The position numbers and the translations under genes are program-made. The notes beneath the pieces are model-generated. The model ran no database searches, was not told the origin of the DNA, and was given only the letters and a program-made list of their open reading frames with translations. From a phage: DNA of 64,000 nucleotides. The stretch is taken from assembly GCA_025829515.1 (NCBI GenBank), contig GCA_025829515.1_4865.1. The stretch is one strand, 5' to 3'. Below are positions 6,360 through 43,247 of the stretch, in pieces; the stretch's first letter is position 1; each line of letters opens with the position of its first letter.

Positions 6360-6387
6360 ATGAAGACACCCTTAAGGAGAATTAAAG

Positions 6388-6858: not shown

Positions 6859-7556
6859 TGGCTAAGCAAAAGAAACCCCGTAACAAAAAGTATAACCCGA
6901 AAGTTGCCACAGAACGTACGGCACACACCGTCGCTGAAAACGCTCTGAATCGTATCACGTTTATCGGCAGTTCGATTCGTCGCCTCGGGCCGTACGCGGG
7001 CCGTGGTTTTCACTTTACGGCAAGTCCTCGTATTCGTGCTATCGCCACAGATATGTTAGTCGGTGGGCTGTTCGACCAACCGCGACCATGGCATCTTTGG
7101 GTGATGCACCTCACTGAACTCGACACCGGTGAAATTGTAACAGAAACCGCAGTTGCCACACTCGACGATTATACTTTGGCGGACTTCTGTGAACACGCTG
7201 AGAAGTTAGTTAAATCGTTACGCCCTGAACAGGAAGAGGGGAAGTATTTCGGTTATGCATTTGTGGCCGCCCCGAACGAGCGGTACGACTTCAAAGCGGA
7301 AGAAGACCAACTCATTGAAAACTTCATGCATTCTGGACTACTTGATACGTCGTTACATCTGTCGGAAGAGCAACAGTTCGTTAGTCGTGCAGAAATGGCC
7401 AACCTGCTCGTTGGTTATACTCGGAAGTTTGACGTGACCGTTGAACATGTCAAAGAAGTACCAGAGATTGTGAGCAAGAAAGACGAGGTGGTGCTTCCGG
7501 TTGACGAGGTTGTCAGTAAAGTAGCGACTGCGATAGGGGCAACGGGGGATTACTGA
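6858..7556 (+). CDS. hypothetical protein
   Basis: 232-aa ORF; start overlaps the upstream stop (coupled). Confidence 0.5.
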   Translation: MAKQKKPRNKKYNPKVATERTAHTVAENALNRITFIGSSIRRLGPYAGRGFHFTASPRIRAIATDMLVGGLFDQPRPWHLWVMHLTELDTGEIVTETAVATLDDYTLADFCEHAEKLVKSLRPEQEEGKYFGYAFVAAPNERYDFKAEEDQLIENFMHSGLLDTSLHLSEEQQFVSRAEMANLLVGYTRKFDVTVEHVKEVPEIVSKKDEVVLPVDEVVSKVATAIGATGDY

Positions 7557-25187: not shown

Positions 25188-26600
25188 ATGCTATTTTACT
25201 CGAAGGAGTCGGCACTGCTTGTATACGACCAAGTCAATCGGGATAACCCTGATTTAGTTATTAAGCTGACGCCGGCTATCGCTGCTTTAACCAGTGGCCC
25301 AACCTCAGTTACGTTAAACCAACGTAACACCAAAGCTGTTTTCACCGGGTATCCAGGGACAGGTGTACAAGGTAATGTTACCGTGTACTACGACCGGATT
25401 AACCTGGCCACCTTATTTAATTTTGTGCCGACTGTGGCTATCAAAGACACAGTCTTAACGGTACGAGACGCGTTACCTGCAATAAACGACGCATTAGGAC
25501 TTACATTAGTTGCTTCTGATTTGCAGTCACCTGACGCAAGTTTACCTAAACCGAGCGTTTCGCCGCAGACGTTGAAATTAAATATCTCAGGCAATTGCCC
25601 TGCGTTTACAGGCAGCTTAACGATACGTTATACCGTCCCGAGTGGTGCAATTTACCCCGATTCTGGACCTGGCCCTAAAACGTTGCTGCAAGGTAACACT
25701 ATCGCGGGTTATTTCGGAACAACCAGAACTGCAGAGTTGTTTACACACTCTCAACTTCTTAATGCCACTATATCGGCCGGTGCGTTACCACCGGTACATT
25801 CTGGTGCCGAAGGTTGGTACAAGTTCTTTTACCAGGGTAGGGTTATTTACCTCCCGATCAGTCCTGTCGCTGGCTCCATCTCCTGGAATACGTTATATAC
25901 AAACGGACTCGTTTACGGAACAGACGATAACGGTAAATACCCTGCAGCGACGCCCGTTAACCAGGGACGCATCATTAGCTTTACAGGCGCAGACAACAAA
26001 AGGTTTTACTTCCGTGTTCGTCTACCTAGTGCCGGGAAAGACCCATACGTCAGCGGCACCCCAACTGCCGCTGAGTTAGCAGGTAGTGAGTTTGAGATGT
26101 TCAACTTTCTGTATAATGGAACGTGGGACAAACCGATTAACAGTTACTGGACGCTGTTCTGTTTATTGAAAGATACACTGAAGACCAACGTCGCCCATCA
26201 TCGCATGGCGACGTTGTCTGGAGCAAGTTGGACAAACTTAGAAAAATCATCGAGTGCGGGCAACTACTACTGGTTCCCGGTGCTGGAGTTGGTGGATAAG
26301 TCCACAGTTACCTTGGGTTTAGAAGATATCCACGGTACGGCAGATTACAGTCTCCAACCGTGCAGCGTGTCCGCAGAAAACACATTTAGTCTCAAGCCGT
26401 TAGTGCTCGGTAATCCGGATACTACCGATTTCGAACCGGTAGTTGTTACTTCAGAAAACAGTTTCGCACTGCATCCGCCTGCTTTAATGCTGCCGAAGAC
26501 AGTCGACTTCCAACCTATTGCGGCTACCGCTGAAATGTATACGCCCCCTGACAAGACAACGTTAACGTCTCTTAACGGTGAACTGGACGGCTTTAAGTAG
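25188..26600 (+). CDS. paralog-family protein, long type (anchor N-domain, GPGP core domain, linker, C-terminal NGELDGF tag), module 1
   Basis: NQRNT, VTVYYDRINL, DSGPGPKTLL...GYFG...ELF, YWFPVLELVD, ends SLNGELDGFK. Confidence 0.7.
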   Translation: MLFYSKESALLVYDQVNRDNPDLVIKLTPAIAALTSGPTSVTLNQRNTKAVFTGYPGTGVQGNVTVYYDRINLATLFNFVPTVAIKDTVLTVRDALPAINDALGLTLVASDLQSPDASLPKPSVSPQTLKLNISGNCPAFTGSLTIRYTVPSGAIYPDSGPGPKTLLQGNTIAGYFGTTRTAELFTHSQLLNATISAGALPPVHSGAEGWYKFFYQGRVIYLPISPVAGSISWNTLYTNGLVYGTDDNGKYPAATPVNQGRIISFTGADNKRFYFRVRLPSAGKDPYVSGTPTAAELAGSEFEMFNFLYNGTWDKPINSYWTLFCLLKDTLKTNVAHHRMATLSGASWTNLEKSSSAGNYYWFPVLELVDKSTVTLGLEDIHGTADYSLQPCSVSAENTFSLKPLVLGNPDTTDFEPVVVTSENSFALHPPALMLPKTVDFQPIAATAEMYTPPDKTTLTSLNGELDGFK

Positions 26601-26611
26601 AGGTATCATCT

Positions 26612-27610
26612 ATGTCTTTTACTTTGCGTTGGAAAAATCCAAACGTAATCTCTACGGTAGTAAAAATCTACCGTGATGTTAAAGATATCACACCAAGCGC
26701 TTTGCCTGAACCGATTGCAACGCTCTCAAACGGCGAGACAGAATGGCGTGATACCACCGCCACACCAGGCGCAACCTATTATTACCTTCTGACGGTAACC
26801 GCCAACGGTAAAACAGTGGCATCGTCTAGCCAGAAATATACCATTGAACTGAAGCGGGGAATCGGTCCAATGACTATTCTAAACGGTGACGACCGTTTAG
26901 GGTTTATGGGTGCGGTTCCTTACGACGAACAGTGGCTTCCGTCGCAAATGCCACCTGCATTTTTGGCGATGTTCCCTAACCTACTAACCGATCGTGTGGC
27001 GTTGTATAAATTTACCCGAAACGGGAAGATCTATTACATGCTATCTAGCACGTCGCAGTTCCCGAATACGCCTGTGGACTGGGCTTCCCTCTATCAAGCT
27101 GGTTTAGTCTACGGTACAGGCGATGCTGGCCCAGAGAACGGCCATGGAACGCTACCGGCCACTCCACAAGACGCTAAGATAGTCCACAGAGGGGATACGT
27201 ACATTATGCGTCTTCCTCGCGGCCTGACGACGTCTAGCGAGTCTCCTGCGTATCCTTTCGTGGCTGACTACAATGGGAAAACCCACGATGAAATCGCTTC
27301 TCTAACCAACCCGTGCGAGTATAACGATTTACTTTACACGATGGTTAACGAGGTGCCGAAGAAACAACGTTGGGCTAACTGGGCAACAATCGGTTATACT
27401 TATCTGGGACAGGGTACTTTGGGAACCTTGGCACAGTATTTCGGCGGTGGTGTTCTCTGTATGGAACACGACACCGCGGAAGACCGTGTGCTCCATCGTG
27501 GTATTTTTAACAATGCCGGTGGAACACCCGTATCCACGATTCAGCGTATAAACTATTTATCACCCACCACGAAAGGGCGCTACTACCCTATCTTTGAACT
27601 GGTCGAGTAA
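26612..27610 (+). CDS. module 1 B-type protein (fibronectin-III-like N-domain plus core domain)
   Basis: N-terminus RWKNP...IYRD...TYYYLLTVTANG (FN3-like pattern, inferred); core ends YYPIFELVE. Confidence 0.7.
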   Translation: MSFTLRWKNPNVISTVVKIYRDVKDITPSALPEPIATLSNGETEWRDTTATPGATYYYLLTVTANGKTVASSSQKYTIELKRGIGPMTILNGDDRLGFMGAVPYDEQWLPSQMPPAFLAMFPNLLTDRVALYKFTRNGKIYYMLSSTSQFPNTPVDWASLYQAGLVYGTGDAGPENGHGTLPATPQDAKIVHRGDTYIMRLPRGLTTSSESPAYPFVADYNGKTHDEIASLTNPCEYNDLLYTMVNEVPKKQRWANWATIGYTYLGQGTLGTLAQYFGGGVLCMEHDTAEDRVLHRGIFNNAGGTPVSTIQRINYLSPTTKGRYYPIFELVE

Positions 27611-27619
27611 GGGGCAGTC

Positions 27620-28543
27620 ATGACTATACGGTTAAGCTGGCCGTCCCAAGCCAGCAAAGGTCTTACCGCGATTGAAATCTACCGCAAGGAAGGATGGAAC
27701 GCAACAATCGACGTTTACAACCCAGGCACACCCCACGCCACCTTATCCGGTAGCGCGGTAGAGTTCGTAGATAATATCGATACCCTGACGAAGAATACAA
27801 CTTATCGTTACTGGGTAGCTGCTGTGAAAGATAATGAACGACTTATCGGCAATCCGATTACGCAAGGGTTCTATCCGGACACTGGACCGGGGCCACAAAC
27901 TATTTTGCGTGGCGATTGGGCGTCAGGCTATTTCGGTACGGTATCTAATACCGAGTTCTTTAATACTGCCGAGTTAAAACTCATGTTAACCGCGCAGCAG
28001 GGAAACATGTTTACTTACGACCCTCAGGAATGGCACAAGTTTATTTTCCGTGGGCGAATTGTCTTCTTCCCAGCGACGATGCATTCGAAAAGCAACTCGG
28101 TACAAATGGCGTATCAGTACGGCATGATGTACGGGACCGATGATGTCGGAAGTATTGTTCCGCAGGGAGCCACGGCGACTAAACAAGATTGTAAGGTCAC
28201 GAAGGATGGTCGTACGTACCGTATCCGATTACCTTACGCAGTCCCGTACGACGCGGCACTCTCAGGACAGGATTACAACAACGGTGAATGGCGAAACACA
28301 ATGGGCCGTTTGTATCCTGTCGGTGCACAGTACGCAGCCCTCGGTCTTGGTGCGATTGACTCACTTGAAAGACAAGGCGCGACTGCGCAGCCGAATGAGT
28401 CAGGTGCCGCTGTATTAGCTCCTTTGTGGAGCAACAACATATTCGCTTATGCGTATGGCACCGTGCCTATGGGGATTAGTAACACCGCAGGTGTCGGGAA
28501 CTCGGCCACGATATTCTTTGCTTTTGAATTAGTCTTACCGTAA
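27620..28543 (+). CDS. module 1 C-type protein (FN3-like N-domain plus GPGP core domain)
   Basis: IEIYRK...TTYRYWVAAV, DTGPGPQTILRGDWASGYFG, ends FAFELVLP. Confidence 0.7.
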   Translation: MTIRLSWPSQASKGLTAIEIYRKEGWNATIDVYNPGTPHATLSGSAVEFVDNIDTLTKNTTYRYWVAAVKDNERLIGNPITQGFYPDTGPGPQTILRGDWASGYFGTVSNTEFFNTAELKLMLTAQQGNMFTYDPQEWHKFIFRGRIVFFPATMHSKSNSVQMAYQYGMMYGTDDVGSIVPQGATATKQDCKVTKDGRTYRIRLPYAVPYDAALSGQDYNNGEWRNTMGRLYPVGAQYAALGLGAIDSLERQGATAQPNESGAAVLAPLWSNNIFAYAYGTVPMGISNTAGVGNSATIFFAFELVLP

Positions 28544-28556
28544 TGGAGTAAATACC

Positions 28557-29975
28557 ATGGGGTTGTATACAGAACCTTCAATGGAACTGCTCTGCCAACA
28601 AATTGTGCGTGACAATCCCGGTTTAGCAGGAAAAATCACCCCTGACTCCATTGGGGTCAGGGGTGTTCCTGTTGCGAAAAACGTTAACGGACGAAACACT
28701 CAGATTACGTTGGTAGGAAAACCCGGTAAAGGATTTGCTGGGGAAATAACGGTATATTACGACCGGTTGAATCTGGCCAGTCTATTTAAGTCTGGCCCGA
28801 ATATGGTGAGTATTCCACGTAGCGCACAAACCCATGCGGAAGCGTTACCGGCGTTCAATGAATTGAACGGGTTGAACTTAACCGCGAGTGACATCACCAG
28901 TCCAAACGTTGCATTAATGAAATACGCTACGCCGGAAACTGTAACTCTGACGGCGCACGCTAACTCCTTGTGTTATACCGGGTCATGCAAGATGACCTAT
29001 GTTTACGAACCGATTGCGATGTATCCGAAGTCGGGTCCTGGGCCAAAAGGATTAATGGCCGGTAATGAGTTATACGGATTCTTTGGGCTGGTAAGCGCGG
29101 AAGAGTTATTCACATCTGATGAAATGGTGTATGCCCTCTATAACGGCACCAACTGGCCTAACCGCTACGCTATCAAGTGGCTCAAATTCTTTCTGAATGG
29201 GGCGGTAGTGTTTGTTCCGACCCGTGCGATTTGCAACGTTACCTGGGCAGACCTGTACAACAAGGGTGCAATATTTGATTCCGGAGACGCAGGACCTCGC
29301 CCGAAGTCGACTTACACACCTGTCGATGTTGAACAGTTGAAATACATGGTAAAACGGGATGATGAAGGAACGCATTATTTCAGAATGTCTATCCCGTATT
29401 ACACCGAGAACGCCGCCGCGCCTGATTGGAGTAAACCGCCGTCAATCACCTCTATCCTGTCACTGACCAGCAAATTGGGGTCGGTGAACGTATATGGGGA
29501 GTGGGGAACTCTTAGCACGACTGATGCTAACTTCCTGGATTACGTGTGGTTACGACATCAGTTCGGTGCCGACCAAGCGTATTACCAGTCTATCAGTGGG
29601 AGCTATCGTTCATACACCTACATCTACACCTCTTCTGGCTTTTGGCCAATCCTGGAGATGTTTGATGTTGCCAATGAACCTGTGCCGTTGATTGACGAAG
29701 GTGCAGAGCTAACATGGGCACCGTCCGTGGTTACTCTGACGGACATCGACCAAAATGAATCGCTTCGTGTGGTGCCTATTACGGAAACCTCCGCTGCAGC
29801 GAATCCACGTCCTCTGCTTGCCGCGACGGACAATGATGAACGTGCATATTCCGTCGCGGTAACAGGCATGGCTAGCGTTAAGATTAGACCGATTATTCTC
29901 ACGACTGACCAAATCGCCCAACCTTCAAAAATTACTCTGGGCGATACTAACGGTGAGTTGGATGGATTCCAATAA
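28557..29975 (+). CDS. paralog-family protein, long type with NGELDGF tag, module 2
   Basis: ITVYYDRLNLASLF, KSGPGPKGLMAGNELYGFFG, ends TNGELDGFQ. Confidence 0.7.
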   Translation: MGLYTEPSMELLCQQIVRDNPGLAGKITPDSIGVRGVPVAKNVNGRNTQITLVGKPGKGFAGEITVYYDRLNLASLFKSGPNMVSIPRSAQTHAEALPAFNELNGLNLTASDITSPNVALMKYATPETVTLTAHANSLCYTGSCKMTYVYEPIAMYPKSGPGPKGLMAGNELYGFFGLVSAEELFTSDEMVYALYNGTNWPNRYAIKWLKFFLNGAVVFVPTRAICNVTWADLYNKGAIFDSGDAGPRPKSTYTPVDVEQLKYMVKRDDEGTHYFRMSIPYYTENAAAPDWSKPPSITSILSLTSKLGSVNVYGEWGTLSTTDANFLDYVWLRHQFGADQAYYQSISGSYRSYTYIYTSSGFWPILEMFDVANEPVPLIDEGAELTWAPSVVTLTDIDQNESLRVVPITETSAAANPRPLLAATDNDERAYSVAVTGMASVKIRPIILTTDQIAQPSKITLGDTNGELDGFQ

Positions 29976-29987
29976 GAGGTAACGACA

Positions 29988-30974
29988 ATGGCTTTTACAA
30001 TTCGTTGGACGAACAATAACCCTGGGGCTTCGACCGTGAAGCTGTACCGCGACACCAAACCTCTGGTGCGTACGGCATTACCTGAACCTCTGGCAACGTT
30101 CACTGACGGGGAAACTGAGTATACTGACCGAACGGCGATACTGGGGACAACGTATTACTACATGACCACCGTGACAGTGGGAAGCCGGACACTGTTCAGT
30201 CCGCAGAAATCAATTCTGATTCAGAACCGTCGCGGTATCGGCATCGTGGCTCCACAGTACGGTGATGACCGCTTTGCGTATTACGGGTATGTGGCGTACG
30301 GTGAATTACCTAGCGCGGGTGATTATCCGCCAGGGTTTGTGGCCCTTTCTGGATACGACCCAACTGTTAAGCCGGGCTTGATGAAGTTCCAGCTAGACGG
30401 TAAAATTCTGTATCTGTTTAGTGGTCTTCGTGTGAACGGCAACACGCTGTATAGCCGTGATGCGATTTATAACGCGGGTTTGCTGTACGGTGTGGCGGGA
30501 CCTGGTCCGGAAGGCGGTCATGGCGATTTACCTGACGTTGACCAGGCTGGGGAGTTTACGTGGTTGGGTGACCGCTATCGGATGCGCCTGCTGCGCGGTT
30601 TAACACTCGACAGTGAAAGCCCGGTCATGACACTCGATGCACAGTGGAACGGTAAACTCCATGACGCGTCACCGTATACTGCCGATAGCGAATACAACCG
30701 ACTCATCTATGGGATAAGTAGCTGGTTCCCAGAAAAGAAAAAAGTGATGTCCCTGATAAAGTGGTCGAACTCCAGCATATTCGGAAGTGGATCGCTGGTG
30801 GCAGGCCGTGGGGCGCATTGTCAGGAGTTTGACCCAGACCGTAAGTTGGGGCTGACGCGCGGATGGGCGGCGGCGGATTCCACTGATACCGTGGATAACC
30901 TCCAGCGTATACAACATGTCCCTGGTGCGACCGGCGGTATTTGGATTCCAGTAATCGAGCTTATCGAGGATTAA
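29988..30974 (+). CDS. module 2 B-type protein
   Basis: paralog of 26612-27610; ends IWIPVIELIED. Confidence 0.7.
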   Translation: MAFTIRWTNNNPGASTVKLYRDTKPLVRTALPEPLATFTDGETEYTDRTAILGTTYYYMTTVTVGSRTLFSPQKSILIQNRRGIGIVAPQYGDDRFAYYGYVAYGELPSAGDYPPGFVALSGYDPTVKPGLMKFQLDGKILYLFSGLRVNGNTLYSRDAIYNAGLLYGVAGPGPEGGHGDLPDVDQAGEFTWLGDRYRMRLLRGLTLDSESPVMTLDAQWNGKLHDASPYTADSEYNRLIYGISSWFPEKKKVMSLIKWSNSSIFGSGSLVAGRGAHCQEFDPDRKLGLTRGWAAADSTDTVDNLQRIQHVPGATGGIWIPVIELIED

Positions 30975-30976
30975 TC

Positions 30977-31876
30977 ATGCCTATTACATTAAACTTTGCA
31001 CAACGGAAGCCACAGGCGCTCGATAACATTGAAATCTATCGCAAGACGCCGGGCAACGCCACCATTGATGTTAATGCACCGGGAACGCCTCTGGCAACCC
31101 TTCCGGGTGACGCTACATCGTACGAAGACAACGCTGTGGAAAACAACACCACTTACCGTTATTGGATTGCTGCGGTTAAAGACGGTGAGCGTGTCTTCAA
31201 CACCCCTACCGCCCAAGGGTTCTTTTTAGACACCGGGCCTGGCCCCCAGAAACTGTTATACGGCGACTGGCACGCTGGATACTTTGGAACAGTAACGCCA
31301 GCAGAGTTATTCACTAACGCGGAACTGAACAGCCTCGTGGTGAATATGTTCAGTTCCGCCGTTGGTGCCTGGCATAAGTTCATTTACAAAAACCGTATTC
31401 TGTTTATGTCCGATAACTCGATAATATACGCTAGCCCGCAGTTCATTTATAACCAGGGGCTGATGTACGGCCAGGATGGCAACGGATATGTGCCGAGCTG
31501 GGCTAGTGCACGTAACCAACGCCGCACGGTGACGAAAAACGGTTACGAATACGTGGTGCGCTTGCCGTATTTGTTCGACTACAAATACTGGACGTCTTTC
31601 GTTGGAGGCGGTAACACCGAGTTGTATCTCGACGGTGAGTGGTTTAACACCTTCGCGCGCCTGTACAACTACAGTGGGCAGTTTCCGCGCTTTGACGACC
31701 TTCCGGTCGGTTCAATCGATTCGGTTACTGCCCAACAATCTGCATTCTTTGCGGCTATGAATAACTCGTTCAGTCAGTGGTACAACCGTCCACCTTACCC
31801 AGAGTCGCCGACATGGAGTAACTACGGTACCACTACAGTGCGTTCTATTGCGGTACTTGAACTCGTTCTGCCTTAA
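30977..31876 (+). CDS. module 2 C-type protein
   Basis: start moved to ATG at 30977 (gagga SD); paralog of 27620-28543; ends AVLELVLP. Confidence 0.7.
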   Translation: MPITLNFAQRKPQALDNIEIYRKTPGNATIDVNAPGTPLATLPGDATSYEDNAVENNTTYRYWIAAVKDGERVFNTPTAQGFFLDTGPGPQKLLYGDWHAGYFGTVTPAELFTNAELNSLVVNMFSSAVGAWHKFIYKNRILFMSDNSIIYASPQFIYNQGLMYGQDGNGYVPSWASARNQRRTVTKNGYEYVVRLPYLFDYKYWTSFVGGGNTELYLDGEWFNTFARLYNYSGQFPRFDDLPVGSIDSVTAQQSAFFAAMNNSFSQWYNRPPYPESPTWSNYGTTTVRSIAVLELVLP

Positions 31877-31887
31877 CAGGAGACTTC

Positions 31888-33330
31888 ATGGGATTGTATA
31901 GCGCACCCGAACTGGAATTACTCTGCCAACAAGTCGTAAGGGATAACCCTGAACTCGCAGGAAGAATCAGCGCTGATTCGATTGGGGTGAGGGGTGTTCC
32001 TGCCGAGACCACTAAGAATGGTCGTAACACGGTAATTACGTTGGTAGGTAAACCCGGTAAAGGTTTCTCTGGGGAGTGCACGGTTTATTACGACCGTTTA
32101 ACATTATCAGATCTATTTAAAATAGCTCCGCGCGTCTACGTACCACAAACGGCCAAGACCGTGCGGGATCTTCTCCCAGCTCTACGTGATTTATACGGTG
32201 TTTGGTTATCTGATAGCAGTGTACAGTCGGTAGACGCGCCTATCAAATCGCTGGCAACGCCAACACGTATTAATTTAACCGCGTATAATAGCGTATGCTA
32301 TCGCGGCTATATCCCGGTCGATTATTTGAATGAAGCCGTAGGGTACTATCCAGATTCTGGGCCAGGCAATAAATATTTGTTGGCAGGGGACAGCACAAAC
32401 GGATACTTCGGTCACGTTTCTCAGCAAGAGTTATTTACCTTTGCTGAACTAAACAACCTAATTCGTCCTGATGTTTCCCCAACGAAAATGACTTTCGAGT
32501 GGTTGAAATTTTTCAAGGACGGTAAGATTGTTTATCTACCGACTACCGGAACGTTAACAGCAACCTGGACGGCCCTTTATCAAGCGGGTGCCATTTTCGG
32601 TACAGGTGACGCTGGTCCGTATCCAGACGGTATCGAACCTGTTGACCAGGCTTTGATTGTCACGAAAACTGAGAATAACAAGACGCATTATTACCGTGTC
32701 TCCGTTCCGGTTAGCCCTGATTTATCAAAGGCCACGCCGTTGTGGCTTATTTCACAACTCGGTGACGGTTCTACGGGTGGCGACTGGGCAAATGACACCA
32801 CGTTAACCAGAACCACCGTCTTCTTCACGCAACAACTGTTAACCGGGGGTAACCCTGTTAAAGTACAACGTTGCAATATGCGCGGTGGCTCAGTTGAATG
32901 GGTAACCCTTGCAGATACCACTTACTGGTGGCCTGTTTTAGAGGAAATCAATAAGGACGACATCGTCTTACCTTTAGCTGATGTGGAAGGGGATGTTGTG
33001 TGGCGCGTTAGGGTTATTCCTAATGTACCATCACCACAACCTGATAGCATTCGCCCTCTTGCAGTCGAGGTTGCGACAACAGATGCGCCGAGACCTCTAG
33101 CAACAACTGCGGAACAGGTGGAAGAACCTATCAGCCCGATTGTGGTGGGTGAACCAAACGTCGATACTGCGCTGCCGTTATCGACAGTGTCGAAGAGCGT
33201 AGGTACAGTTAGGCCGATGGTTGTACTTGAACCACACGTCGACGCACCGCGTCCACTACCGCCTACTCAGGCAGAACCTCCACTTAAAACAGATTTAGCA
33301 ACCGCGAACGGTGAGTTGAACGGCTTCTAA
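31888..33330 (+). CDS. paralog-family protein, long type with NGELNGF tag, module 3
   Basis: CTVYYDRLTLSDLF, DSGPGNKYLLAGDSTNGYFG, Pro-rich DAPRPL repeats, ends ATANGELNGF. Confidence 0.7.
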   Translation: MGLYSAPELELLCQQVVRDNPELAGRISADSIGVRGVPAETTKNGRNTVITLVGKPGKGFSGECTVYYDRLTLSDLFKIAPRVYVPQTAKTVRDLLPALRDLYGVWLSDSSVQSVDAPIKSLATPTRINLTAYNSVCYRGYIPVDYLNEAVGYYPDSGPGNKYLLAGDSTNGYFGHVSQQELFTFAELNNLIRPDVSPTKMTFEWLKFFKDGKIVYLPTTGTLTATWTALYQAGAIFGTGDAGPYPDGIEPVDQALIVTKTENNKTHYYRVSVPVSPDLSKATPLWLISQLGDGSTGGDWANDTTLTRTTVFFTQQLLTGGNPVKVQRCNMRGGSVEWVTLADTTYWWPVLEEINKDDIVLPLADVEGDVVWRVRVIPNVPSPQPDSIRPLAVEVATTDAPRPLATTAEQVEEPISPIVVGEPNVDTALPLSTVSKSVGTVRPMVVLEPHVDAPRPLPPTQAEPPLKTDLATANGELNGF

Positions 33331-33340
33331 GGAGTAACAG

Positions 33341-34339
33341 ATGGCTTTCACACTACGCTGGAAAAATGAAAATCCGGCAGGTTCAATTGTTAACATTTAT
33401 CGGGGCACGGCTAAAATAAATACAGCCGCATTACCAGCCCCTATTGCAACTTTAAGTAATGGCGAAACGGAATGGACGGACGAAACCGTTATTCTTAACA
33501 CCCGTTACTGGTATCTTTTAACAGTAACTGTTAACGGTCGTACCGTAGGTAGTCCACAAAAATCCATTGTCATTAAAAACCGTCGTGGTGTGGGTGGCGT
33601 CGACCAGATTAACTATTCCGATACTGACGACTTGGCGTTTCTGGGGCAGTTGCCGTTCGAAGAACAGATGACCTATGACGCGTTGCCTGCAGGCTTTCGT
33701 GCATTAACAGGGATATCGGGCACGGGCACGCTAATCATGAACAAGTTTTATCGTCATGGTAAAGTTTACTACATGATGAACAGCGGCGGACGATTTAACT
33801 CTACACTTTACTCGTGGAATGACATTTATAACGCGGGGCTTGTGTACGGTGTTGATGGATTTGGTCCTGATAACGGACGTGGGGATTTGGCAGGTGTTGA
33901 CCAGAGTGGGTTGTTTGAATGGCAAGGCGACACCTATCGGATGCGATTGCTGCGCGGTTTAACCGACGGGGACGAACCGACAGTAATGACATTGGATGAA
34001 TCGTTGCGAAACGCAGACCATGATGACTTGGAATATGGTCGCTGCGAATATAACGATTTTGTTTATCCGTTCGGAGAATGTATCCCTAACAAACAAATGC
34101 TCCCTAACTGGACTAATATTAGTCCAGCGTCCATTTATGGGAGCGGTAGCGCTTACCAAGGCAAAGGTTTCTTGTGCCAAGAACGTGATCCTGAATCGGG
34201 ATTAGTTCTGGTTCGCGGGTCTGCGCCTATCGATTCAAGCATAACCAATACGTCGAAACGTAACCTCTCCCAAGTTACGTTAGTTGATAGTGCTGAGAAG
34301 GTCGGTTTGTACGCATTCGTTATCGAGTTAGTGGAGTAA
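33341..34339 (+). CDS. module 3 B-type protein
   Basis: paralog of 26612-27610 and 29988-30974; ends YAFVIELVE. Confidence 0.7.
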   Translation: MAFTLRWKNENPAGSIVNIYRGTAKINTAALPAPIATLSNGETEWTDETVILNTRYWYLLTVTVNGRTVGSPQKSIVIKNRRGVGGVDQINYSDTDDLAFLGQLPFEEQMTYDALPAGFRALTGISGTGTLIMNKFYRHGKVYYMMNSGGRFNSTLYSWNDIYNAGLVYGVDGFGPDNGRGDLAGVDQSGLFEWQGDTYRMRLLRGLTDGDEPTVMTLDESLRNADHDDLEYGRCEYNDFVYPFGECIPNKQMLPNWTNISPASIYGSGSAYQGKGFLCQERDPESGLVLVRGSAPIDSSITNTSKRNLSQVTLVDSAEKVGLYAFVIELVE

Positions 34340-34342
34340 AAC

Positions 34343-35245
34343 ATGTCGATTATCTTAAACTGGAAACAACAGTCAGGTCAGACTTTAGATTCCATTGAAA
34401 TCTATCGTTACGACAACCCTAGACAAAGTGTTAACCCAGTAGCACCGGGGGAACCCATTGTAACACTACCAGGTAACACAACGACGTACGAGGACAAGAC
34501 CACCGAAGCGTATAAAACGTATCAATATCGCATCGTGGCGGTAAAGGGCACTGAAAAGGTTATGGGGCTGCCGATTGTACAGGGCGACTTTCCAATGACA
34601 GGGCCCGGCCCACAGGAACTTATTCGTGGCGATTGGCATCGTGGCTACTTTGGCACACTGACAAACAAAGAATTTATTCTTAACCATGCCGAGCTGAATG
34701 GTTTAATTGGCTTTAATGCCTGGAACCAAGCTCCAACATTGTTCCATAAATTCGTTTTCAAAGGACGCATTCTGTTCATTCCTGACACGGTGACCCGTTT
34801 AGGGACGTCGTGGGAAGAACAATACCGGCAAGGTCTGGCCTGGGGAACAGATGACTACGGTTTCCCGCCAGGGGGCGTCACTACCACTAACCAGCGTCGG
34901 ACATTTAATAAAGACGGTTACGAGTATGTGGTACGCTTGCCTCGACTCGGAGACTACAGTTATGGGCACAGCACCTACCTAAGCAGCGGTGGTTATTTTC
35001 AAGACGGCGAGTGGCACAACACGTTCGCAAGCTTGTTCCGGTACGCGGGCGTCGTAAGACGTTTTGGCGACTTACCGATGCGCTCCGGCGGTAGTCCAAC
35101 CGATTCAAGCGCAACATTGTTTGCCAACGGTCGTGACATCTACAACGCCTGGTACTATCGCAGCAACTCACCAGACTCACCATCGTATACCTATTCGACC
35201 GATAGCGCGTCGGTAGTCCACGTTATCGAATTGGTTCTTAGCTAA
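34343..35245 (+). CDS. module 3 C-type protein
   Basis: paralog of 27620-28543; MTGPGPQELIRGDWHRGYFG; ends HVIELVLS. Confidence 0.7.
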   Translation: MSIILNWKQQSGQTLDSIEIYRYDNPRQSVNPVAPGEPIVTLPGNTTTYEDKTTEAYKTYQYRIVAVKGTEKVMGLPIVQGDFPMTGPGPQELIRGDWHRGYFGTLTNKEFILNHAELNGLIGFNAWNQAPTLFHKFVFKGRILFIPDTVTRLGTSWEEQYRQGLAWGTDDYGFPPGGVTTTNQRRTFNKDGYEYVVRLPRLGDYSYGHSTYLSSGGYFQDGEWHNTFASLFRYAGVVRRFGDLPMRSGGSPTDSSATLFANGRDIYNAWYYRSNSPDSPSYTYSTDSASVVHVIELVLS

Positions 35246-35256
35246 CAGGAGCTAAT

Positions 35257-35553
35257 ATGGGGTTTTACTCATCCACTGCACTTGAGCTGTTGTGTCGGCT
35301 CATTCAGCGGGATAATCCCCAACACGCAGGTCGAATCAGCGCAGATTCAATTGGGGAGTGTACGATCTATTACGATAAGTCGTTAAGCAGTAACACAGTG
35401 GCCGATGTTACCACCGCATCCAACTCGTTCGCTAATAAAGCGTACGGCCGCGCGGTTATCCAAACTGACGTCGAAGCAGCTGGAGTTAAAGGGATAGCGT
35501 ACTTCACCATAACAGCTAAAAATAGGCCCCGAAGGGCCTATTTTCTTTTTTAG
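35257..35553 (+). pseudogene. chimeric, frameshifted remnant of the paralog family
   Basis: first ~33 codons match long-type N-termini, then jumps to a short-type C-terminus; a 1-nt difference relative to the YYHYNS-stop ending removes the stop and the frame runs into the terminator hairpin. Confidence 0.6.
35521..35553 (+). terminator. intrinsic terminator
   Basis: aataggcccc-gaag-gggcctatt hairpin followed by ttcttttttt. Confidence 0.8.
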
Positions 35554-35562
35554 GACGTTGCA

Positions 35563-36882
35563 ATGATCAACTATAACAAACCTGTCATGCAGCTGGTTTG
35601 GGATCAGATTAATCGTGATAACCCGCAGCTCAAGAAACCACTCAACGCAACCAACGTGGCGTTATTACAAGGTCCTTTAACCAATGCCTTGCGCGATGGC
35701 CGCAACAGCCGTATAGTGGTAAACGGATTACAGGGTGGCGGTTACAGCGGTAAGATGGACATCTACTACGACCGCTTAAACCTTTCGCAGTATTTTAAAG
35801 GCGTCAGCGTACCGGTTAAAGTACCTTATCGGGCGACGTCCTACCGCGACATCATCGACCGGATTTCCGCAGCTTGTGGGCTGGTGCTTACTGCTGACGA
35901 TTTAACGTATCCTGACAGCCAGTTTGCAATGATCACTGTGGCAACGGGCGATCGGACGGTGGCGATTAAATCGGATAACCCCGCATTCACGGGTCACATT
36001 CCTATTAGCTTTATTCGTGAAGAGCCCAGCTTTGCCGACTTGTACCACACCACCGAAACCGGAGCTTGGGAACCCATGGATGTTTACAGCACGGTCTATC
36101 GACTCGACTGGAGCATGTACACCCAACAGATAATCAATATTCCAATGGGTACCCCGCTGCGACTAAACAGTAACTCGTACATGACCCAGTTCATCGCGGC
36201 GCTGTCGGCATGGTCGGGCATCCCGTTCACTATCGGTAATGCTGCTACCGATAACCCGTATGACCTCTATGGGTATGTCGCTACACGCAATAACAACCCA
36301 GGCTTAGACCCTGATATGCGTGGGGAGTACAATTACTGCGTGAAGTTGACGCCACCTGAGGATATGGGTAATCTCCGTCGTCCGTTCTTCTTGCACTTTG
36401 GTCCGAAAAATAACGTGGCCTATTTGGCGCAGGAAAAGGACGTCGAACGTTATGCGCGTTACATGAGGTTCCGGGAAACCAGCTCAAATTCGATGAGCGT
36501 CACGTTGTATCAAAACGAGTACGTGTTGACTCGGGCAGAATCGCCTGAAACTGCGGATGATTTAACGGGTTCCCCGTATGGCACTCGATACTGTACCGGG
36601 AGTATTCGACGGCTGATGCAACACGCGTTTCCGACCGAAGAGATGTTCCAAGAAAGTATTGCTAACCGACGTCGGGTACTGTACCACACTGCTTACACCA
36701 CCACGACATCAGCTATTACTTACCAGGGACTATACCGTAACGGATACCAATCCAAACAAATGACGAGCCTCTACTCGAATTACTGTAACTATTTCATCTA
36801 TTACGACCCAAGCAAAGGCGGCTATATGGTCTACAGTCCATATAGCAAAACCGCCCCGGTCCCTTGGTATCCAGCGCTATAG
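35563..36882 (+). CDS. paralog-family protein with a distinct C-terminal domain
   Basis: N-terminus MINYNKP...INRDNP...DIYYDRLNLS is family-like; C-terminus YYD..G.M...PY.K.AP.PW shared with the next gene. Confidence 0.65.
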   Translation: MINYNKPVMQLVWDQINRDNPQLKKPLNATNVALLQGPLTNALRDGRNSRIVVNGLQGGGYSGKMDIYYDRLNLSQYFKGVSVPVKVPYRATSYRDIIDRISAACGLVLTADDLTYPDSQFAMITVATGDRTVAIKSDNPAFTGHIPISFIREEPSFADLYHTTETGAWEPMDVYSTVYRLDWSMYTQQIINIPMGTPLRLNSNSYMTQFIAALSAWSGIPFTIGNAATDNPYDLYGYVATRNNNPGLDPDMRGEYNYCVKLTPPEDMGNLRRPFFLHFGPKNNVAYLAQEKDVERYARYMRFRETSSNSMSVTLYQNEYVLTRAESPETADDLTGSPYGTRYCTGSIRRLMQHAFPTEEMFQESIANRRRVLYHTAYTTTTSAITYQGLYRNGYQSKQMTSLYSNYCNYFIYYDPSKGGYMVYSPYSKTAPVPWYPAL

Positions 36883-36896: not shown

Positions 36897-39074
36897 ATGT
36901 CCTACACTCCTGATTTAGTGGCGACCGTGATTCGGTCGCTCAACCGTAAAAACGCGGTCGCCAAAGCAGTAGACCCCGCTAACGTACGCCTGGTGTCCGT
37001 GGCGCATCGTGACGAAAAAACCCTAGACGTCACACTGACAGGGGGTCCGGGGTATTCAAGTTACGGTCAAATTACGGCCCAAGTCACGAAGCAAAATATT
37101 GCTGATTATTTCGCCAAGGTTAAGTTGGATGCCATTCCCACTTGTGCGTCCATCCACGAACTGTTGCCGCATTTAGACACTCTACTAGGGATTACCTTTT
37201 TAACTGACGACTTTGAAGACCTGCCTATCACTTGGACAAACAATGCTGCGTGTATCACGTTCCAGGCGAAACAGACAAGTCTTATCTGGTACGGCAGCCA
37301 AACGCTAGATGTGATAAACGGTGACGTGGATATCAACACCGTCTACACTGTTACCAACATCATTCTCACGCTAAAGGCTGCGAATAAACAGCAGTGGATT
37401 AACTTCTACTCTAATGCAACCAAACGGATCGTGGATCTTGATAAAGTCGATGTCAGCTCCCCGATGTCCCCGGAGGATATAGGCCAAACCTCTGCGTATA
37501 ACAGCGTCGTAGCTTTGACCGCTAGACCGGGGAGCGGGATGTTTGGAACGAAGTATGTGTTCTTTTCACGTAACAAACTCGAGACATATGCAGGCAAAAC
37601 CACATACGTCCCGGATGATTTCACCGGTAGCCTGCACGATGCTCTGGCCATCGAGACACTCGGCATTCGGAGTGTTTTTGATGTAAACGAAATTGCTCCT
37701 GTAGAGAACCTGGCAGGCGAGTGGCCGAGACAAGTGCAATTGGCACCCGTAGAGGGTTCGTACAAAGTCATGGGCAGTGCCACGTTGAATGTGGCACGCT
37801 ATCAAGATAACGAGCAAACCCTTAACCTGAACTACACAACTACGTCGCAACTTTCGGACAGCTACTGGGCCACAACGTTGACCAACCATGCGGCGTGCGG
37901 GCGTTTGTTTGTTAACGTGACCGTAGATGCGGGGGCTTTCGTTTATCGCGACAGCAACCTGAAACCGACGTTCGTTATCGACGAATTGCCGCAAATTGGC
38001 GAGGTGGTTTGGAACTTCGTTAACCGGGGAACCATTCTTGGTCGTGGTGGTTCGGGTATGGTCTACTCTATGCCTGCGAACACATCAGCGGACGGAGCTG
38101 ACGCAATCCACATTACCGATGCCTTCCGCGGCAAAGTCACCATCGAAAACTACGGCACCATCGCCGGAGGTGGGGGCGGGGGCGACTACTATGCGTTTAG
38201 CACCACCAAGATCGGTGGAGCTGGTGGTGCGCCACTCGGGACAGGCGCGGTGGTGCCCAGCGGCACCAATAACCGTAACGGCTTAGCTGGGTCCCGTGAC
38301 AAAGGCGGTGCTACTCAGTTAGTCGTCGCACAATTTACCGGCTACCAGAGTCGCTACTATGGCGGTCCGGGTGGGGATTGGGGCCAGCCGGGACGATATA
38401 CAGCGTTCGAGCAATGGAACACCCCGGCTACCGGCTCGCCGATCTATGTCTACGGTCGTGAAGACGGGATGTCATGGACTCGCCCTGGGATGGCAGGCGA
38501 AGCCGTCGGTGGGAATAAAAGTATCGTCAACTGGGTATCCGTCGGAACGGTGAAACCGAATGTCACCAACGAGTACCAAGAGTTCCTCGACTACCTCGCA
38601 GATTTAGATGCCAACCGATTGGCCAGTGCGGATGGGATAGATAAAGTCACCGACCCAACCAAGCCTGTAGTTGTGGAGTTCTTAGGTACGATTATTTCAG
38701 GTACGCTGTTCCAAAAGCAAAACATACCCGGCGGTTTGGTGGGAACACCATACGGCGATGCTGTAGCCAACTTACCAGCCACCACATTGTTTGGTATCAT
38801 GGCACACTGTGTATCGGAGTTTGATATTGTGCACGACACTTGGCGTTACAACCGCGCGGTGATGTTCACGCTAAAACCCGCACCTACCGGGGCGATTAGC
38901 CTCGCTGTGGAACGCAACCGGGTGAAATCGGCTACCAGTAGTGCACCGGTGGAGAAGTTCTACGTCGATCGCTTCGTGTATTACGATGCGTATCTCGGTA
39001 AAATGATGGAATGTAATCCGTATACCAAATCTGCCCCTAAACCGTGGGTGCGGCCAACGATACCGTTATCGTAA
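36897..39074 (+). CDS. paralog-family protein with Gly-rich region (725 aa); candidate receptor-binding protein
   Basis: Gly-rich tract IAGGGGGGDYYAFSTTKIGGAGGAPLGTG; C-terminal domain shared with 35563-36882; stop is followed in frame by FNEELDGFKA-stop. Confidence 0.65.
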   Translation: MSYTPDLVATVIRSLNRKNAVAKAVDPANVRLVSVAHRDEKTLDVTLTGGPGYSSYGQITAQVTKQNIADYFAKVKLDAIPTCASIHELLPHLDTLLGITFLTDDFEDLPITWTNNAACITFQAKQTSLIWYGSQTLDVINGDVDINTVYTVTNIILTLKAANKQQWINFYSNATKRIVDLDKVDVSSPMSPEDIGQTSAYNSVVALTARPGSGMFGTKYVFFSRNKLETYAGKTTYVPDDFTGSLHDALAIETLGIRSVFDVNEIAPVENLAGEWPRQVQLAPVEGSYKVMGSATLNVARYQDNEQTLNLNYTTTSQLSDSYWATTLTNHAACGRLFVNVTVDAGAFVYRDSNLKPTFVIDELPQIGEVVWNFVNRGTILGRGGSGMVYSMPANTSADGADAIHITDAFRGKVTIENYGTIAGGGGGGDYYAFSTTKIGGAGGAPLGTGAVVPSGTNNRNGLAGSRDKGGATQLVVAQFTGYQSRYYGGPGGDWGQPGRYTAFEQWNTPATGSPIYVYGREDGMSWTRPGMAGEAVGGNKSIVNWVSVGTVKPNVTNEYQEFLDYLADLDANRLASADGIDKVTDPTKPVVVEFLGTIISGTLFQKQNIPGGLVGTPYGDAVANLPATTLFGIMAHCVSEFDIVHDTWRYNRAVMFTLKPAPTGAISLAVERNRVKSATSSAPVEKFYVDRFVYYDAYLGKMMECNPYTKSAPKPWVRPTIPLS

Positions 39075-39114
39075 TTTAACGAGGAACTTGACGGGTTTAA
39101 AGCCTGAAGATAAT

Positions 39115-40058: not shown

Positions 40059-40700
40059 ATGGAAGCACTTAAGTATAAGTTGTTAGAGAAGCCGTGGTTT
40101 ATCCTCACGGATGATTTCCATTTCGAGTTTACGTTGCGCAGCCTCTATCGTGAACACGCCGGAATGGATGCGATGGTAGCATTAGCAGGTCTGCATCCGG
40201 ATACCCCGTTATGGGTAACGGTACCGAAAGGATTTGTGACGGACCTGGCAAGCATTCCAGAAGCGTTACGTCCTATCCTGCATCCGGATGGGCCTTGGGC
40301 TGCTGCCGCTTGTGTGCATGATTTGTTTTACCAGAAACGTTCATCGGTAGGCTTTTACCCTGACACTGTCGAAGGTAATCTATCTCGTGCATGTGACAAA
40401 ACATTCGCTGACCTGATGTTCTTACGTATCATGGAGGCATTAGGCGTTGACACCTTTATTCGTAAGTCCTTCTACCATGCCGTTCACGAGTTTGGTTGGC
40501 CGTCCTATGTAGACGATAACTCTAAGGTGGTTTATAGCCGGCCGGTAGAAAAGACGTTGTCCTATAATCGCAACTACCTGTTCTTTAGAACGTCGCGTAC
40601 GTTAGCGATTCCTGAACACGAACGTGTTGACATTACTAATGGGCAACCGGTAAACGTGCAGTATTTGAATATCAAACGTGCGTTCCTGACTACCCCTTAA
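40059..40700 (+). CDS. DUF1353-like protein
   Basis: KGFVTDLASIP resembles the DUF1353 F-x-T-D-G-A-S-I-P signature. Confidence 0.5.
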   Translation: MEALKYKLLEKPWFILTDDFHFEFTLRSLYREHAGMDAMVALAGLHPDTPLWVTVPKGFVTDLASIPEALRPILHPDGPWAAAACVHDLFYQKRSSVGFYPDTVEGNLSRACDKTFADLMFLRIMEALGVDTFIRKSFYHAVHEFGWPSYVDDNSKVVYSRPVEKTLSYNRNYLFFRTSRTLAIPEHERVDITNGQPVNVQYLNIKRAFLTTP

Positions 40701-41304: not shown

Positions 41305-41362
41305 GGTAAATAAAGCCCTTACCCACTCCCCTTACGGGAGTGGGTAAGCATTATTTATTTTC
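41305..41362. terminator. bidirectional intrinsic terminator between convergent genes
   Basis: cttacccactcc...ggagtgggtaag hairpin flanked by an A-tract on one side and a T-tract on the other. Confidence 0.7.
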
Positions 41363-41842
41363 TTCTAACGGAACAATCGTAATCGGAGTAGGAACTTCAC
41401 CGATAAACCCGCTGCTGCAGCGAAAGAATGTCATCCCTTTACCTTCGCCGGTATACGGGTTCACATCCGAAAAAGAGTAAGTGGGGCTATCGTTTACGGT
41501 TTTATTAATACGGTAATAACGCTCACCTGTGGTGGTGTTAACATTCCCGTCGATTTTGCCAATTGTATCTTTAAACATCATCGGTGACTCTAGTTTGCCA
41601 CCGTCCCACGTTGCTACCCAGTTTGCACCCACATCCATTACTGTTACTGACCGCGGCATCATCTGTAGATTGTCCAGAACCGGACGGTAGTCTATAAACT
41701 TCTCCTGCGTCCCTGTGCATGTATAAATCACCAAGTCGTGATTCTTTACTGGTGTGGCGCTAAATTGTCCTATGTTGCTTGGCGACTGAACACAACCGGC
41801 CAACAGGTTTATAATCGCGAGTACGATAAATAGACGTTTCAT
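41351..41842 (-). CDS. lipoprotein (signal peptide plus lipobox LLAGC)
   Basis: MKRLFIVLAIINLLAGC; lone minus-strand gene between two bidirectional terminators. Confidence 0.7.
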   Translation of the reverse strand: MKRLFIVLAIINLLAGCVQSPSNIGQFSATPVKNHDLVIYTCTGTQEKFIDYRPVLDNLQMMPRSVTVMDVGANWVATWDGGKLESPMMFKDTIGKIDGNVNTTTGERYYRINKTVNDSPTYSFSDVNPYTGEGKGMTFFRCSSGFIGEVPTPITIVPLEENK

Positions 41843-41966: not shown

Positions 41967-42494
41967 ATGGCAGTCATCTCTGCAAAAGACCAACTCGTCG
42001 CGCTGTTTAATGCTGCAAACAGCGGACTGTCTAGTCCGTTAACTTCTGCTGACGTTACATTCGGCGCTGTTGCTGACTATTCACCAGCAGATTCTGGAGA
42101 CACCCGCAACTCCAAACTCACCATCACTGCCACCGCGGAATCCGCTAACTTTACTGGCGAGAAAGAGCTGCATTATACCCGCCTCGATTCATTGAACATC
42201 ATCGGTGCGAAAGCAGTTACCGCTGACCAGGCAGAATGGGATACCGATGAAGAAGTGCTTGCTTTTGTCAACGCAGATCTAATTGCCGCCGGTAAAACGG
42301 AAGATGCGTTTGCATTGTCTGAACTCACCATTTCACGCGAGGACGGCGACAGTGGTGAGAAAATCATCACTGTTATGGTGAAAGAAGGCCACATTAAATA
42401 CCAGCCTGCCAGCCTTGCAGTTTATACTGTAACGCAGCCAATCGTTAAAACTGACCTGAGCACCACCAACGGTGAACTGGACGGATTCGTTTAA
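41967..42494 (+). CDS. short paralog-family member carrying the C-terminal NGELDGF tag
   Basis: DTRNSKLTITA, HYTRLDSLNIIG, ends LSTTNGELDGFV. Confidence 0.65.
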   Translation: MAVISAKDQLVALFNAANSGLSSPLTSADVTFGAVADYSPADSGDTRNSKLTITATAESANFTGEKELHYTRLDSLNIIGAKAVTADQAEWDTDEEVLAFVNADLIAAGKTEDAFALSELTISREDGDSGEKIITVMVKEGHIKYQPASLAVYTVTQPIVKTDLSTTNGELDGFV

Positions 42495-42575: not shown

Positions 42576-43247
42576 TTACATGCCGAGTGACTCGGACAAT
42601 GTTTTTAATCCAGTGTAATCGCGCTTTTCAGCTAACTCACGGATTTGGCGTTTGTTATCTGCCATTGCTGAGTGCAACACCTGGTCACGTGCAACAATAG
42701 CGGCCAGCAACGCTTTACATTGGGCTACTGTAAACGGACTGTGCTTAGTATTCAGCGTATCGAGCCAGTATTCTGGTGCGGTATCTGCCTGAATGTATTG
42801 ACCGAGGATGGTACGCGACGATTCATCGGCTTGAAAGTGGCTACCTTCAAACTCGATATAACCATGGCGCTCATCTTCGTAGCGGTGGTCGAGTTCCAAC
42901 AGCATCTTCTGCACGTCTTCGTAAATGTAACGCGCGGTAGATTTCAGATTCCCGCGAATTTCGTCGAGGTCAATCTCCAGCACATTAGCAATAAACTCTT
43001 TCGTGCGTTTCAATGTGAAGTTAGCTTCAATCTCCGACATCTCATACAGCTTCATGCGTGCCAGGGCTTCTTTATCAGACATCCCTTCGATGAGATGGTA
43101 ATGGAGTAATGCACAAAATCCGGTACGGCCCTGATCCTGCGCACCGATTCGTTCCATGAAATTACCGTGACGATCAATCGGCAAATCACGCTGGAAATAA
43201 CGGGCGCGGATCTCTTCGTTCGTTAAGCTTTTGTCAGTAACAGACAT
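42576..43247 (-). CDS. hypothetical protein; last gene of the Cys-peptide/radical-SAM operon
   Basis: 223 aa; GAGGAGG SD; start overlaps upstream stop by 25 nt. Confidence 0.55.
   Translation of the reverse strand: MSVTDKSLTNEEIRARYFQRDLPIDRHGNFMERIGAQDQGRTGFCALLHYHLIEGMSDKEALARMKLYEMSEIEANFTLKRTKEFIANVLEIDLDEIRGNLKSTARYIYEDVQKMLLELDHRYEDERHGYIEFEGSHFQADESSRTILGQYIQADTAPEYWLDTLNTKHSPFTVAQCKALLAAIVARDQVLHSAMADNKRQIRELAEKRDYTGLKTLSESLGM

Follow-up and report, generated by a model that had tools for sequence, protein, structure and literature searches.

The open reading frame (ORF) at 36897-39074 in a 64,000-nucleotide (nt) stretch of phage DNA (GenBank assembly GCA_025829515.1, contig GCA_025829515.1_4865.1; the whole stretch is called the window below) encodes a protein of 725 amino acids (aa), which is best read as a putative accessory adhesin, monomeric and present in few copies, that is borne by the virion's assembly of DUF7941 proteins. 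A cassette with a domain of the gp38 adhesin type lies between its N-terminal DUF7941 module and its C-terminal domain. We assign this reading a probability of roughly 0.6. An earlier note, made from the letters of the window, had drawn attention to a Gly-rich tract in the protein and proposed a receptor-binding tip. The ORF and the tract are as described there, the tract IAGGGGGGDYYAFSTTKIGGAGGAPLGTGAVVPSG occupying aa 422-456 (nt 38160-38264), and the protein is indeed the largest of its paralog family, the other DUF7941-bearing ORFs of the window coding for 175-480 aa.

By sequence, the window is that of a Seoulvirus, i.e., an SPN3US-like jumbo phage. When the 725-aa product was compared with phage genomes by tblastn, 22 Seoulvirus records matched over the full length at 94-98% identity (SPN3US, the SPFM and SPLA series, SEGD1, Proteus phage 7, and Escherichia phages EC001 and Lh1B), and Cronobacter phage CR5 and Erwinia phage Phobos matched at ~39% identity. 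The SPN3US ortholog, gp155, is 97% identical and annotated as 'hypothetical protein'. One ortholog record, SPFM19, bears the automatic GenBank label 'Phage tail fiber adhesin Gp38', and the Pfam family PF05268 is already attached to orthologous proteins in precomputed annotations. The neighbours of the gene are DUF7941 paralogs and an endolysin; a gp37-like fibre gene is not among the flanking genes.

The assignment of the Gly tract to the gp38 adhesin type, as proposed earlier, is borne out by profile, sequence and structure comparisons. Pfam GP38 (PF05268) matches aa 373-553 with 66 bits (gathering cut-off 25 bits; E = 5.8e-18; profile positions 61-214 of 218), and a match to phrog_2056 ('tail fiber protein; host specificity') covers that stretch too, with E = 3e-19. 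Among PDB sequences, phmmer with the Gly-rich region found only S16 gp38 (6F45_D) and PP01 gp38 (9V85_A), and non-Gly positions align to these as well (GRGG-G, D-IH, I-N-G-I-GGGGGG, GG-PLG-G, GG-G-PG). Gly makes up 22% of aa 373-553 versus 5.5% of the remainder of the protein, and a GGGGGG run occurred in 8 of 20,000 whole-protein shuffles.

An AlphaFold2 model built from a 13-sequence family alignment presents a mean predicted local distance difference test score (pLDDT) of 84.7, with values of 79-95 over aa 401-470; within the gp38-type domain, only aa 393-395 and 509-526 are weak. The top PDB matches of the model in Foldseek are PP01 gp38 (9v85_C; E = 1.4e-10, template modelling (TM) score 0.68) and S16 gp38 (6f45_D; E = 5.2e-8, TM score 0.60), both with a probability of 1.00, and its matches in the BFVD are canonical gp38 proteins of ~250-280 aa. 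In the predicted structure, aa 373-553 thus has the gp38 fold, i.e., a beta-helix with a three-layer polyglycine-II sandwich, and the tract corresponds to Gly-rich motifs 2 and 3 within the folded core. The earlier note had named a disordered linker, lacking any folded tip domain, as the outcome that would speak against it. Given the Pfam score, the pLDDT of the tract and the two gp38 structures at the head of the fold matches, the tract is not such a linker.

When the domain was searched with phmmer against 1.84 billion cluster representatives, 13 proteins were found at E <= 0.001. T-even gp38 proteins stayed below significance in this single-sequence search, and when the Gly-rich domain by itself was used in a word-indexed homolog search, only fragments came back. 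The link to gp38 comes from the Pfam hidden Markov model (HMM), the phmmer search of the PDB and Foldseek. The best non-orthologous match among the cluster representatives is P0025 (282 aa; 58% identity over 84 aa), which is a canonical gp38 with Gp38_N (E = 2e-13) and GP38 domains and an N-terminus matching that of T6 gp38 and its relatives.

The gp38 proteins are defined by five conserved Gly-rich motifs alternating with four variable segments (PMC12032242), and this arrangement is found here at the level of the family. In the 13-member family alignment, on which Gly invariance was scored (Table 1), column entropy is 0.5-1.5 in the five motifs versus 1.9-2.35 in the segments between them, and the inter-motif segments differ in length across the family (8-13, 24-38 and 19-30 residues). 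The domain spans ~10 clusters at 50% identity, from Seoulvirus, Derbicusvirus (CR5) and Erwinia phages.

The domain is part of a larger cassette, whose preceding portion is also predicted to be folded (beta strands across aa 278-376 in the AlphaFold2 model). In a 423-aa gp155 homolog, P0005 (positions 6001-7272 of locus L011, the Logan SRR25820360 contig), ...YVPDD runs straight into ITDEYQEFLDYL... (ITDEYQEF...), which removes aa ~242-556 exactly and leaves the C-terminal NGELDGF tag intact. The contig has the gene order of the window and is present in 4 samples. What remains in P0005 is a DUF7941 N-terminal part and the C-terminal domain, the same layout as in the neighbouring paralog at 35563-36882. 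As this relative shows, gain or loss of the cassette concerns it as a whole.

That the C-terminal domain is shared with the paralog at 35563-36882 had been recognized earlier, and is supported by BLASTP (E = 8e-8, 28% identity, aa 614-717 versus aa 334-435) and by phrog_6409, which matches aa 556-719 of the 725-aa protein and aa 308-436 of its neighbour; the N-terminal DUF7941 part that the two also share had gone unnoticed. Pfam and NCBIfam gave no match to the C-terminal domain or to aa 244-372. The earlier note had further envisaged a T2/S16-style receptor-binding tip, and had looked to the C-terminal region for receptor binding. Neither expectation holds: the C-terminus is a different, unrelated domain, the gp38-type domain is internal to a DUF7941 protein, and Pfam finds no match at E <= 1 to the Gp38_N attachment domain (PF21721) in the 725-aa protein.

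At the N-terminus, DUF7941 (PF25613) matches aa 11-154 with 82 bits (cut-off 27 bits). The C-terminal half of the PF25613 profile is unmatched in the 725-aa protein; the conserved NGELDGF tail is found in orthologs and paralogs. When the modelled N-terminal module was compared with the PDB by Foldseek, it matched 9xqd_0, phiKZ gp127, with E = 5.6e-5, and the same chain was identified as PHIKZ127 (E = 3.1e-5) by a profile of the N-terminal domain, for which five paralogs of the window, three homologs from CR5, and gp22 of Goslar were used. The model of the 175-aa DUF7941 subunit encoded at 41967-42494, which is probably the main subunit of the adhesin-carrying assembly, gave no significant match to phiKZ gp127 in Foldseek against the PDB. 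The link between DUF7941 and gp127 holds for the N-terminal domain in the 725-aa protein and for the profile made from the larger paralogs together with the homologs from CR5 and with gp22 of Goslar.

In phiKZ, gp127 has been modelled in the outer peripheral baseplate, with one copy per star-lobe complex (PMC13250141). For Goslar, a preprint (10.64898/2026.04.21.720040) reports ~2140 copies of the DUF7941 protein gp23 and ~580 of gp22 in the virion, and purified gp22 forms extended filaments. In its AlphaFold3 models, the linker of one DUF7941 subunit docks head-to-tail on the following subunit's N-terminal domain. The preprint further describes some members with carbohydrate-binding, glycoside-hydrolase or leucine-rich repeat (LRR) domains, and proposes a baseplate-anchored 'DUF7941 fibre cloud'; it is silent on SPN3US and names no gp38-like member.

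A C-terminal tag is common to these proteins. Four DUF7941 ORFs of the window (ends 26600, 29975, 33330 and 42494) terminate in ...(T/S)L-x3-NGEL(D/N)GF(x), and an NGELDGF-type tail is present in 9 of the 12 aligned homologs of the 725-aa protein (P0002, P0003, P0012, P0013, P0018-20, P0023 and P0005). Within the 175-aa family, conservation of the tag residues is 90% or higher, AlphaFold2 places the tail of the 175-aa subunit at pLDDT 80-88, the tail of SPN3US gp160 reads ...KTDLSTTNGELDGFV, and Goslar gp23 has a similar ...LADNVADGFV near its end. From conservation and modelling, we infer that the tag is a peptide docking on the following subunit's N-terminal domain, and it may serve as the inter-subunit docking peptide of DUF7941 filaments.

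The 725-aa ORF is followed by a decaying in-frame remnant of the tag (Table 1). In orthologs of 79-82% identity the tail is still translated. P0002, P0003 and P0018 continue to ...NGELDGF, and P0002 has Q at the stop position. After the stop, SPN3US, SEGD1 and Proteus phage 7 have GV in place of GF, and SaP7 carries a frameshift in the tag. Programmed readthrough of the TAA, which would add NGELDGF, was considered and rejected on account of these mutated or frameshifted codons, which argue for a fixed nonsense mutation.

In the mechanism proposed for the accessory adhesin, the N-terminal DUF7941 module would attach the protein to the virion's DUF7941 assembly by accepting the C-terminal ...NGELDGF tail of another subunit, which would take the place of the canonical Gp38_N-gp37 route. 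The cassette would form beta-helix rungs capped by a polyglycine-II sandwich, with the five Gly motifs building the sandwich and four loops of variable length between them. The loops would be displayed away from the scaffold and bind a host surface structure, the protein acting as a monomer. The loop end is expected to point away because a cassette placed between two scaffold domains must enter and leave at its base, as in gp38, whose beta-helix is made by N- and C-terminal segments (PMC12032242). Having lost its own tag by a CAA to TAA change, the protein could accept a subunit but would be unable to recruit the next; since tagless gp155 is still incorporated into virions, we infer that it would be an acceptor only, and would end a chain.

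Table 1. Coordinates of the 725-aa gene, its parts and related features in the window.
Feature	Coordinates	Strand	Evidence and remarks
725-aa ORF	36897..39074	+	ATG start; SPN3US gp155 ortholog (SPN3US_0155 / AEP83988); ORF list, tblastn, SPN3US annotation
N-terminal DUF7941 module, aa 1-160	36897..37376	+	PF25613, Foldseek to phiKZ gp127, profile search; presumed docking/anchoring domain
Inserted adhesin cassette (putative), aa ~242-556	37620..38564	+	P0005 junction; beta-rich subdomain aa 246-372 plus gp38-type domain
gp38-type domain, aa 373-553	38013..38555	+	PF05268, phrog_2056, phmmer 6F45_D/9V85_A, Foldseek 9v85_C/6f45_D; predicted beta-helix rungs and polyglycine-II sandwich
Gly-rich motif 1, GRGGSG, aa 382-387	38040..38057	+	Aligns to S16 gp38 GRGGTG; G382, G384 invariant
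Gly-rich motif 2, GTIAGGGGGGD, aa 420-430	38154..38186	+	Start of the reported tract; G420, G424-429 invariant; entropy 0.49; pLDDT 93
Gly-rich motif 3, GGAGGAPLGTG, aa 440-450	38214..38246	+	Second half of the reported tract; aligns to S16 GGGGGRPLGAG; G444, G448 invariant
Gly-rich motif 4, GGPGGDWGQPG, aa 489-499	38361..38393	+	G492, G493, G496, G499 invariant; aligns to S16 GNGGDVGNPG
Gly-rich motif 5, PGMAGEAVGG, aa 530-539	38484..38513	+	G534 invariant; pLDDT 91
C-terminal domain, aa 556-725	38562..39071	+	phrog_6409; BLASTP to 35563-36882; shared with the neighbouring paralog
Decaying in-frame tag remnant	39075..39107	+	After the TAA stop: PLS*FNEELDGFKA* (translation)
Neighbouring paralog, 439 aa, gp154 ortholog	35563..36882	+	DUF7941 N-terminal part and same C-terminal domain, without the gp38 cassette
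175-aa DUF7941 subunit	41967..42494	+	Ends ...NGELDGFV; ortholog of abundant SPN3US gp160, counterpart of Goslar gp23; Pfam, PHROG

The virion association of the 725-aa protein is taken solely from its ortholog SPN3US gp155, which proteomics recovered from heads and, with 626 peptide-spectrum matches (PSMs), from wild-type virions. PSMs per kDa, scaled to the portal, sheath or capsid protein, give ~8-44 copies of gp155 per virion, and the same scaling gives hundreds of copies for gp160 and gp141. Both gp155 and 'paralog family B', for which the DUF7941 module is the defining feature (gp83, gp138-154 and gp160), are present in wild-type virions and in tailless particles purified on caesium chloride. 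The SPN3US tables (PMC10052503 Table S2) do not mark gp155 as a member of that family. The protein gp155 is classed as 'Head' in two SPN3US proteomic studies and is present in tailless 255(am107) mutant particles. The normalised ratios of heads to wild-type virions (PMC10052503 Table S2) are 1.39 for the major capsid protein, 1.40 for the portal, 1.06-1.67 for the paralog-B proteins, 0.89 for gp155, 0.027 for the tail sheath, and 0.004-0.013 for the tail-fibre candidates gp168-170. The protein gp237 was counted in paralog family B in 2017; its ratio of 0.06 (PMC10052503) is that of a tail protein, and it could be the counterpart of phiKZ gp127.

The location of the DUF7941 assembly is accordingly contested, being the head fraction in SPN3US versus the peripheral baseplate in phiKZ and Goslar. 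The array proteins (orthologs of those encoded at 19063-42494) all co-purify with tailless SPN3US heads, which conflicts with the Goslar baseplate 'fibre cloud'; the SPN3US data are uncited by the 2026 Goslar preprint. Because the SPN3US head proteomics conflict with the baseplate models and the Goslar maps lack DUF7941 density, several locations come into consideration: the family could be attached to the head, internal to it, or organized as filaments that co-purify with heads. The idea that the abundant DUF7941 proteins form a Hoc-like density at the centre of the SPN3US capsid hexamers (~260 copies) was also considered and found unsupported, the Goslar maps assigning other proteins.

Several of these observations weigh against an accessory adhesin. 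Tailless heads keep gp155 at ~64% of its wild-type per-capsid level, while tail proteins fall to 0.004-0.07, a more than 10-fold drop. The retention of gp155 and of nearly all paralog-B proteins in heads allows an internal location, which would make no sense for an adhesin, and the Goslar maps reveal no ordered density of DUF7941 proteins on the capsid. Eight Seoulvirus orthologs, whose listed hosts are Salmonella, E. coli and Proteus, show only three genuine substitutions (aa 435, 452 and 516) in the three loops that separate motifs 2 to 5, and the domain has 16 aa-variable and 20 synonymous-only sites, a ratio of 0.8 that is no higher than in its flanks. The behaviour typical of gp38 hypervariable segments is therefore absent at short range, and the hypervariable receptor-binding loops expected by the earlier note are not seen among close relatives. 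Divergence from the relatives of 79-82% identity is spread evenly over the domains. Lastly, the docking-tag and chain-end ideas were drawn solely from monomer predictions and sequence conservation.

The head fractionation, the lack of ordered DUF7941 density on the exterior of the Goslar capsid, the conserved loops, and the label 'Head ejection?' given by the SPN3US authors to abundant paralog-B members would all suit an internal, possibly ejected head protein in which the gp38-like fold is structural or intracellular and not adhesive. We consider this unlikely. The protein gp155 is not among the 8-9 proteins that the prohead protease cuts, and its ratio is the lowest among the well-sampled SPN3US 'head' proteins, as expected of a peripheral component that is partly shed. 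The filaments formed by purified gp22, the carbohydrate-binding, glycoside-hydrolase or LRR domains of relatives, and the modelling of phiKZ gp127 outside on the baseplate do not suit an internal protein either, and all gp38-type domains that have been characterised are extracellular adhesins.

The conserved loops recur in two further explanations. In the first, which takes up the earlier note's reading, the protein would be a canonical T2/S16-style adhesin at the end of a long tail fibre and would act as the phage's primary host-range determinant; the GP38 domain with its fold and the automatic SPFM19 label agree with it, but loops that are not hypervariable do not, and the reading is already contradicted on architecture. 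Gp38_N, which canonical P0025 has, is missing, the domain is internal to a 725-aa protein and fused to DUF7941, the gene has DUF7941 paralogs and an endolysin as neighbours instead of a gp37-like fibre gene, and a relative is without the whole cassette. Given in addition that tailless heads keep gp155, and that gp168-170, the candidates for tail fibres, drop more than 75-fold there, a fibre-tip adhesin is highly improbable. Under the other explanation, the cassette was acquired horizontally and is now neutral or purely structural (e.g., a rigid spacer in the DUF7941 assembly), to which the conserved loops, its dispensability in the related phage and the small size of its family lend some plausibility. 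This seems very doubtful to us, given that the Gly motifs are invariant over the ~10 clusters, that a variable-to-synonymous ratio of 0.8 does not exceed that of neighbouring domains, and that the phage produces the protein and builds it into its virions.

The accessory adhesin can be extended to a device that we hold to be speculative and rather improbable. In SPN3US-type flagellotropic jumbo phages (the SPN3US receptor is the flagellum; PMC11428620), DUF7941 filaments would be anchored at the head or neck, instead of or besides the baseplate, with the gp38-type protein as a chain-terminating tip adhesin capturing flagella or the cell surface by means of a T-even adhesin domain. If true, a head-borne filament device would reconcile the proteomics of tailless SPN3US heads with the 'fibre cloud' model of Goslar.

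Other features of the array were observed around the gene. At 25188-35245 (+ strand), a three-gene unit occurs in three tandem copies, each made up of a tagged DUF7941 protein of ~470-480 aa, then one of ~330 aa and then one of ~300-310 aa; the two smaller proteins have in common an N-terminal stretch resembling immunoglobulin or fibronectin type III (Ig/FN3) domains and a GDW..GYFG domain (phrog_1062). CR5 has one copy of this unit, after its gp155 homolog. A 98-aa ORF at 35257-35553 (+ strand) resembles an internally deleted DUF7941 gene, with an N-terminus like that of the paralog at 31888 and aa 39-83 matching the end of the DUF7941 profile (positions 228-272 of 276). In SPN3US this ORF has no annotation, and the gap between the genes is shorter by ~140 bp. 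The short DUF7941 subunit is flanked by a DUF1353 protein (40059-40700, + strand) and a DUF4376 protein (42576-43247, - strand). The former bears the RefSeq label 'tail assembly chaperone', and its ortholog SPN3US gp157 is near the detection limit in virions. Between lysis-related and structural genes, on the opposite strand (41351-41842, - strand), a 163-aa ORF with a lipoprotein-type signal peptide (MKRLFIVLAIINLLAGC) had no match in Pfam.

While the GP38 domain and the DUF7941 family are each already known, we found no published description of their fusion, nor of its bearing on the disagreement between head and baseplate. Polyglycine adhesins of the gp38 type are regarded as a speciality of Straboviridae long tail fibres, and one that occurs as a swappable cassette in a DUF7941 protein of a chimallivirus widens the known reach of the domain. 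The cassette also points to domain exchange between T-even-like and jumbo phages having enterobacterial hosts in common. A low-copy, putatively adhesin-bearing DUF7941 member in a phage with amber-mutant genetics is a good test protein for the head versus baseplate question, and the cassette is a candidate for work in which the host range of Salmonella jumbo phages considered for biocontrol is studied or engineered.

Three known systems are suited for comparison. Caulobacter phage phiCbK is a flagellotropic phage with a head filament. Capsid fibres are also present on the flagellotropic phage 7-7-1 (spelled 7-1-1 in the Goslar preprint, 10.64898/2026.04.21.720040). Similarly to these head-borne adhesive fibres, SPN3US uses flagella and the family bearing the putative adhesin co-purifies with heads. 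The capsids of SPN3US and Goslar, however, have revealed no fibre, and the likeness is a functional analogy only.

In comparison with the Straboviridae gp38 proteins of the T2/T6/S16/PP01 type (PF05268; PDB 6F45, 9V85), the domain scores above the HMM gathering threshold, has five Gly-rich motifs alternating with variable loops, and presents a predicted beta-helix and polyglycine-II sandwich that match the solved structures, with the chain expected to enter and leave at the base and the loop end to face outward. Those proteins are free monomers of ~260 aa, whereas here it lies as an internal cassette in a protein that has neither Gp38_N nor a gp37 partner, and a C-terminal domain of 170 aa unrelated to it comes after. 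Unlike theirs, the loops show no hypervariability between close relatives; the phage that encodes the protein is a nucleus-forming jumbo phage, and the ortholog gp155 co-purifies with heads instead of tails.

The third system is that of the Chimalliviridae DUF7941 proteins (SPN3US paralog family B, Goslar gp22/gp23, phiKZ gp126/gp127). The N-terminal module is homologous to that of phiKZ gp127, the gene lies in a tandem DUF7941 array, and the protein is virion-associated, yet in contrast with the tagged members of the family its C-terminal NGELDGF tail has been lost in this lineage. As in Goslar gp86, gp92 and gp161, a domain of a host-recognition type has been added to the DUF7941 module. In the Goslar members the added domains are carbohydrate-binding, glycoside-hydrolase or LRR domains, whereas here the added domain is a polyglycine sandwich of the gp38 type.

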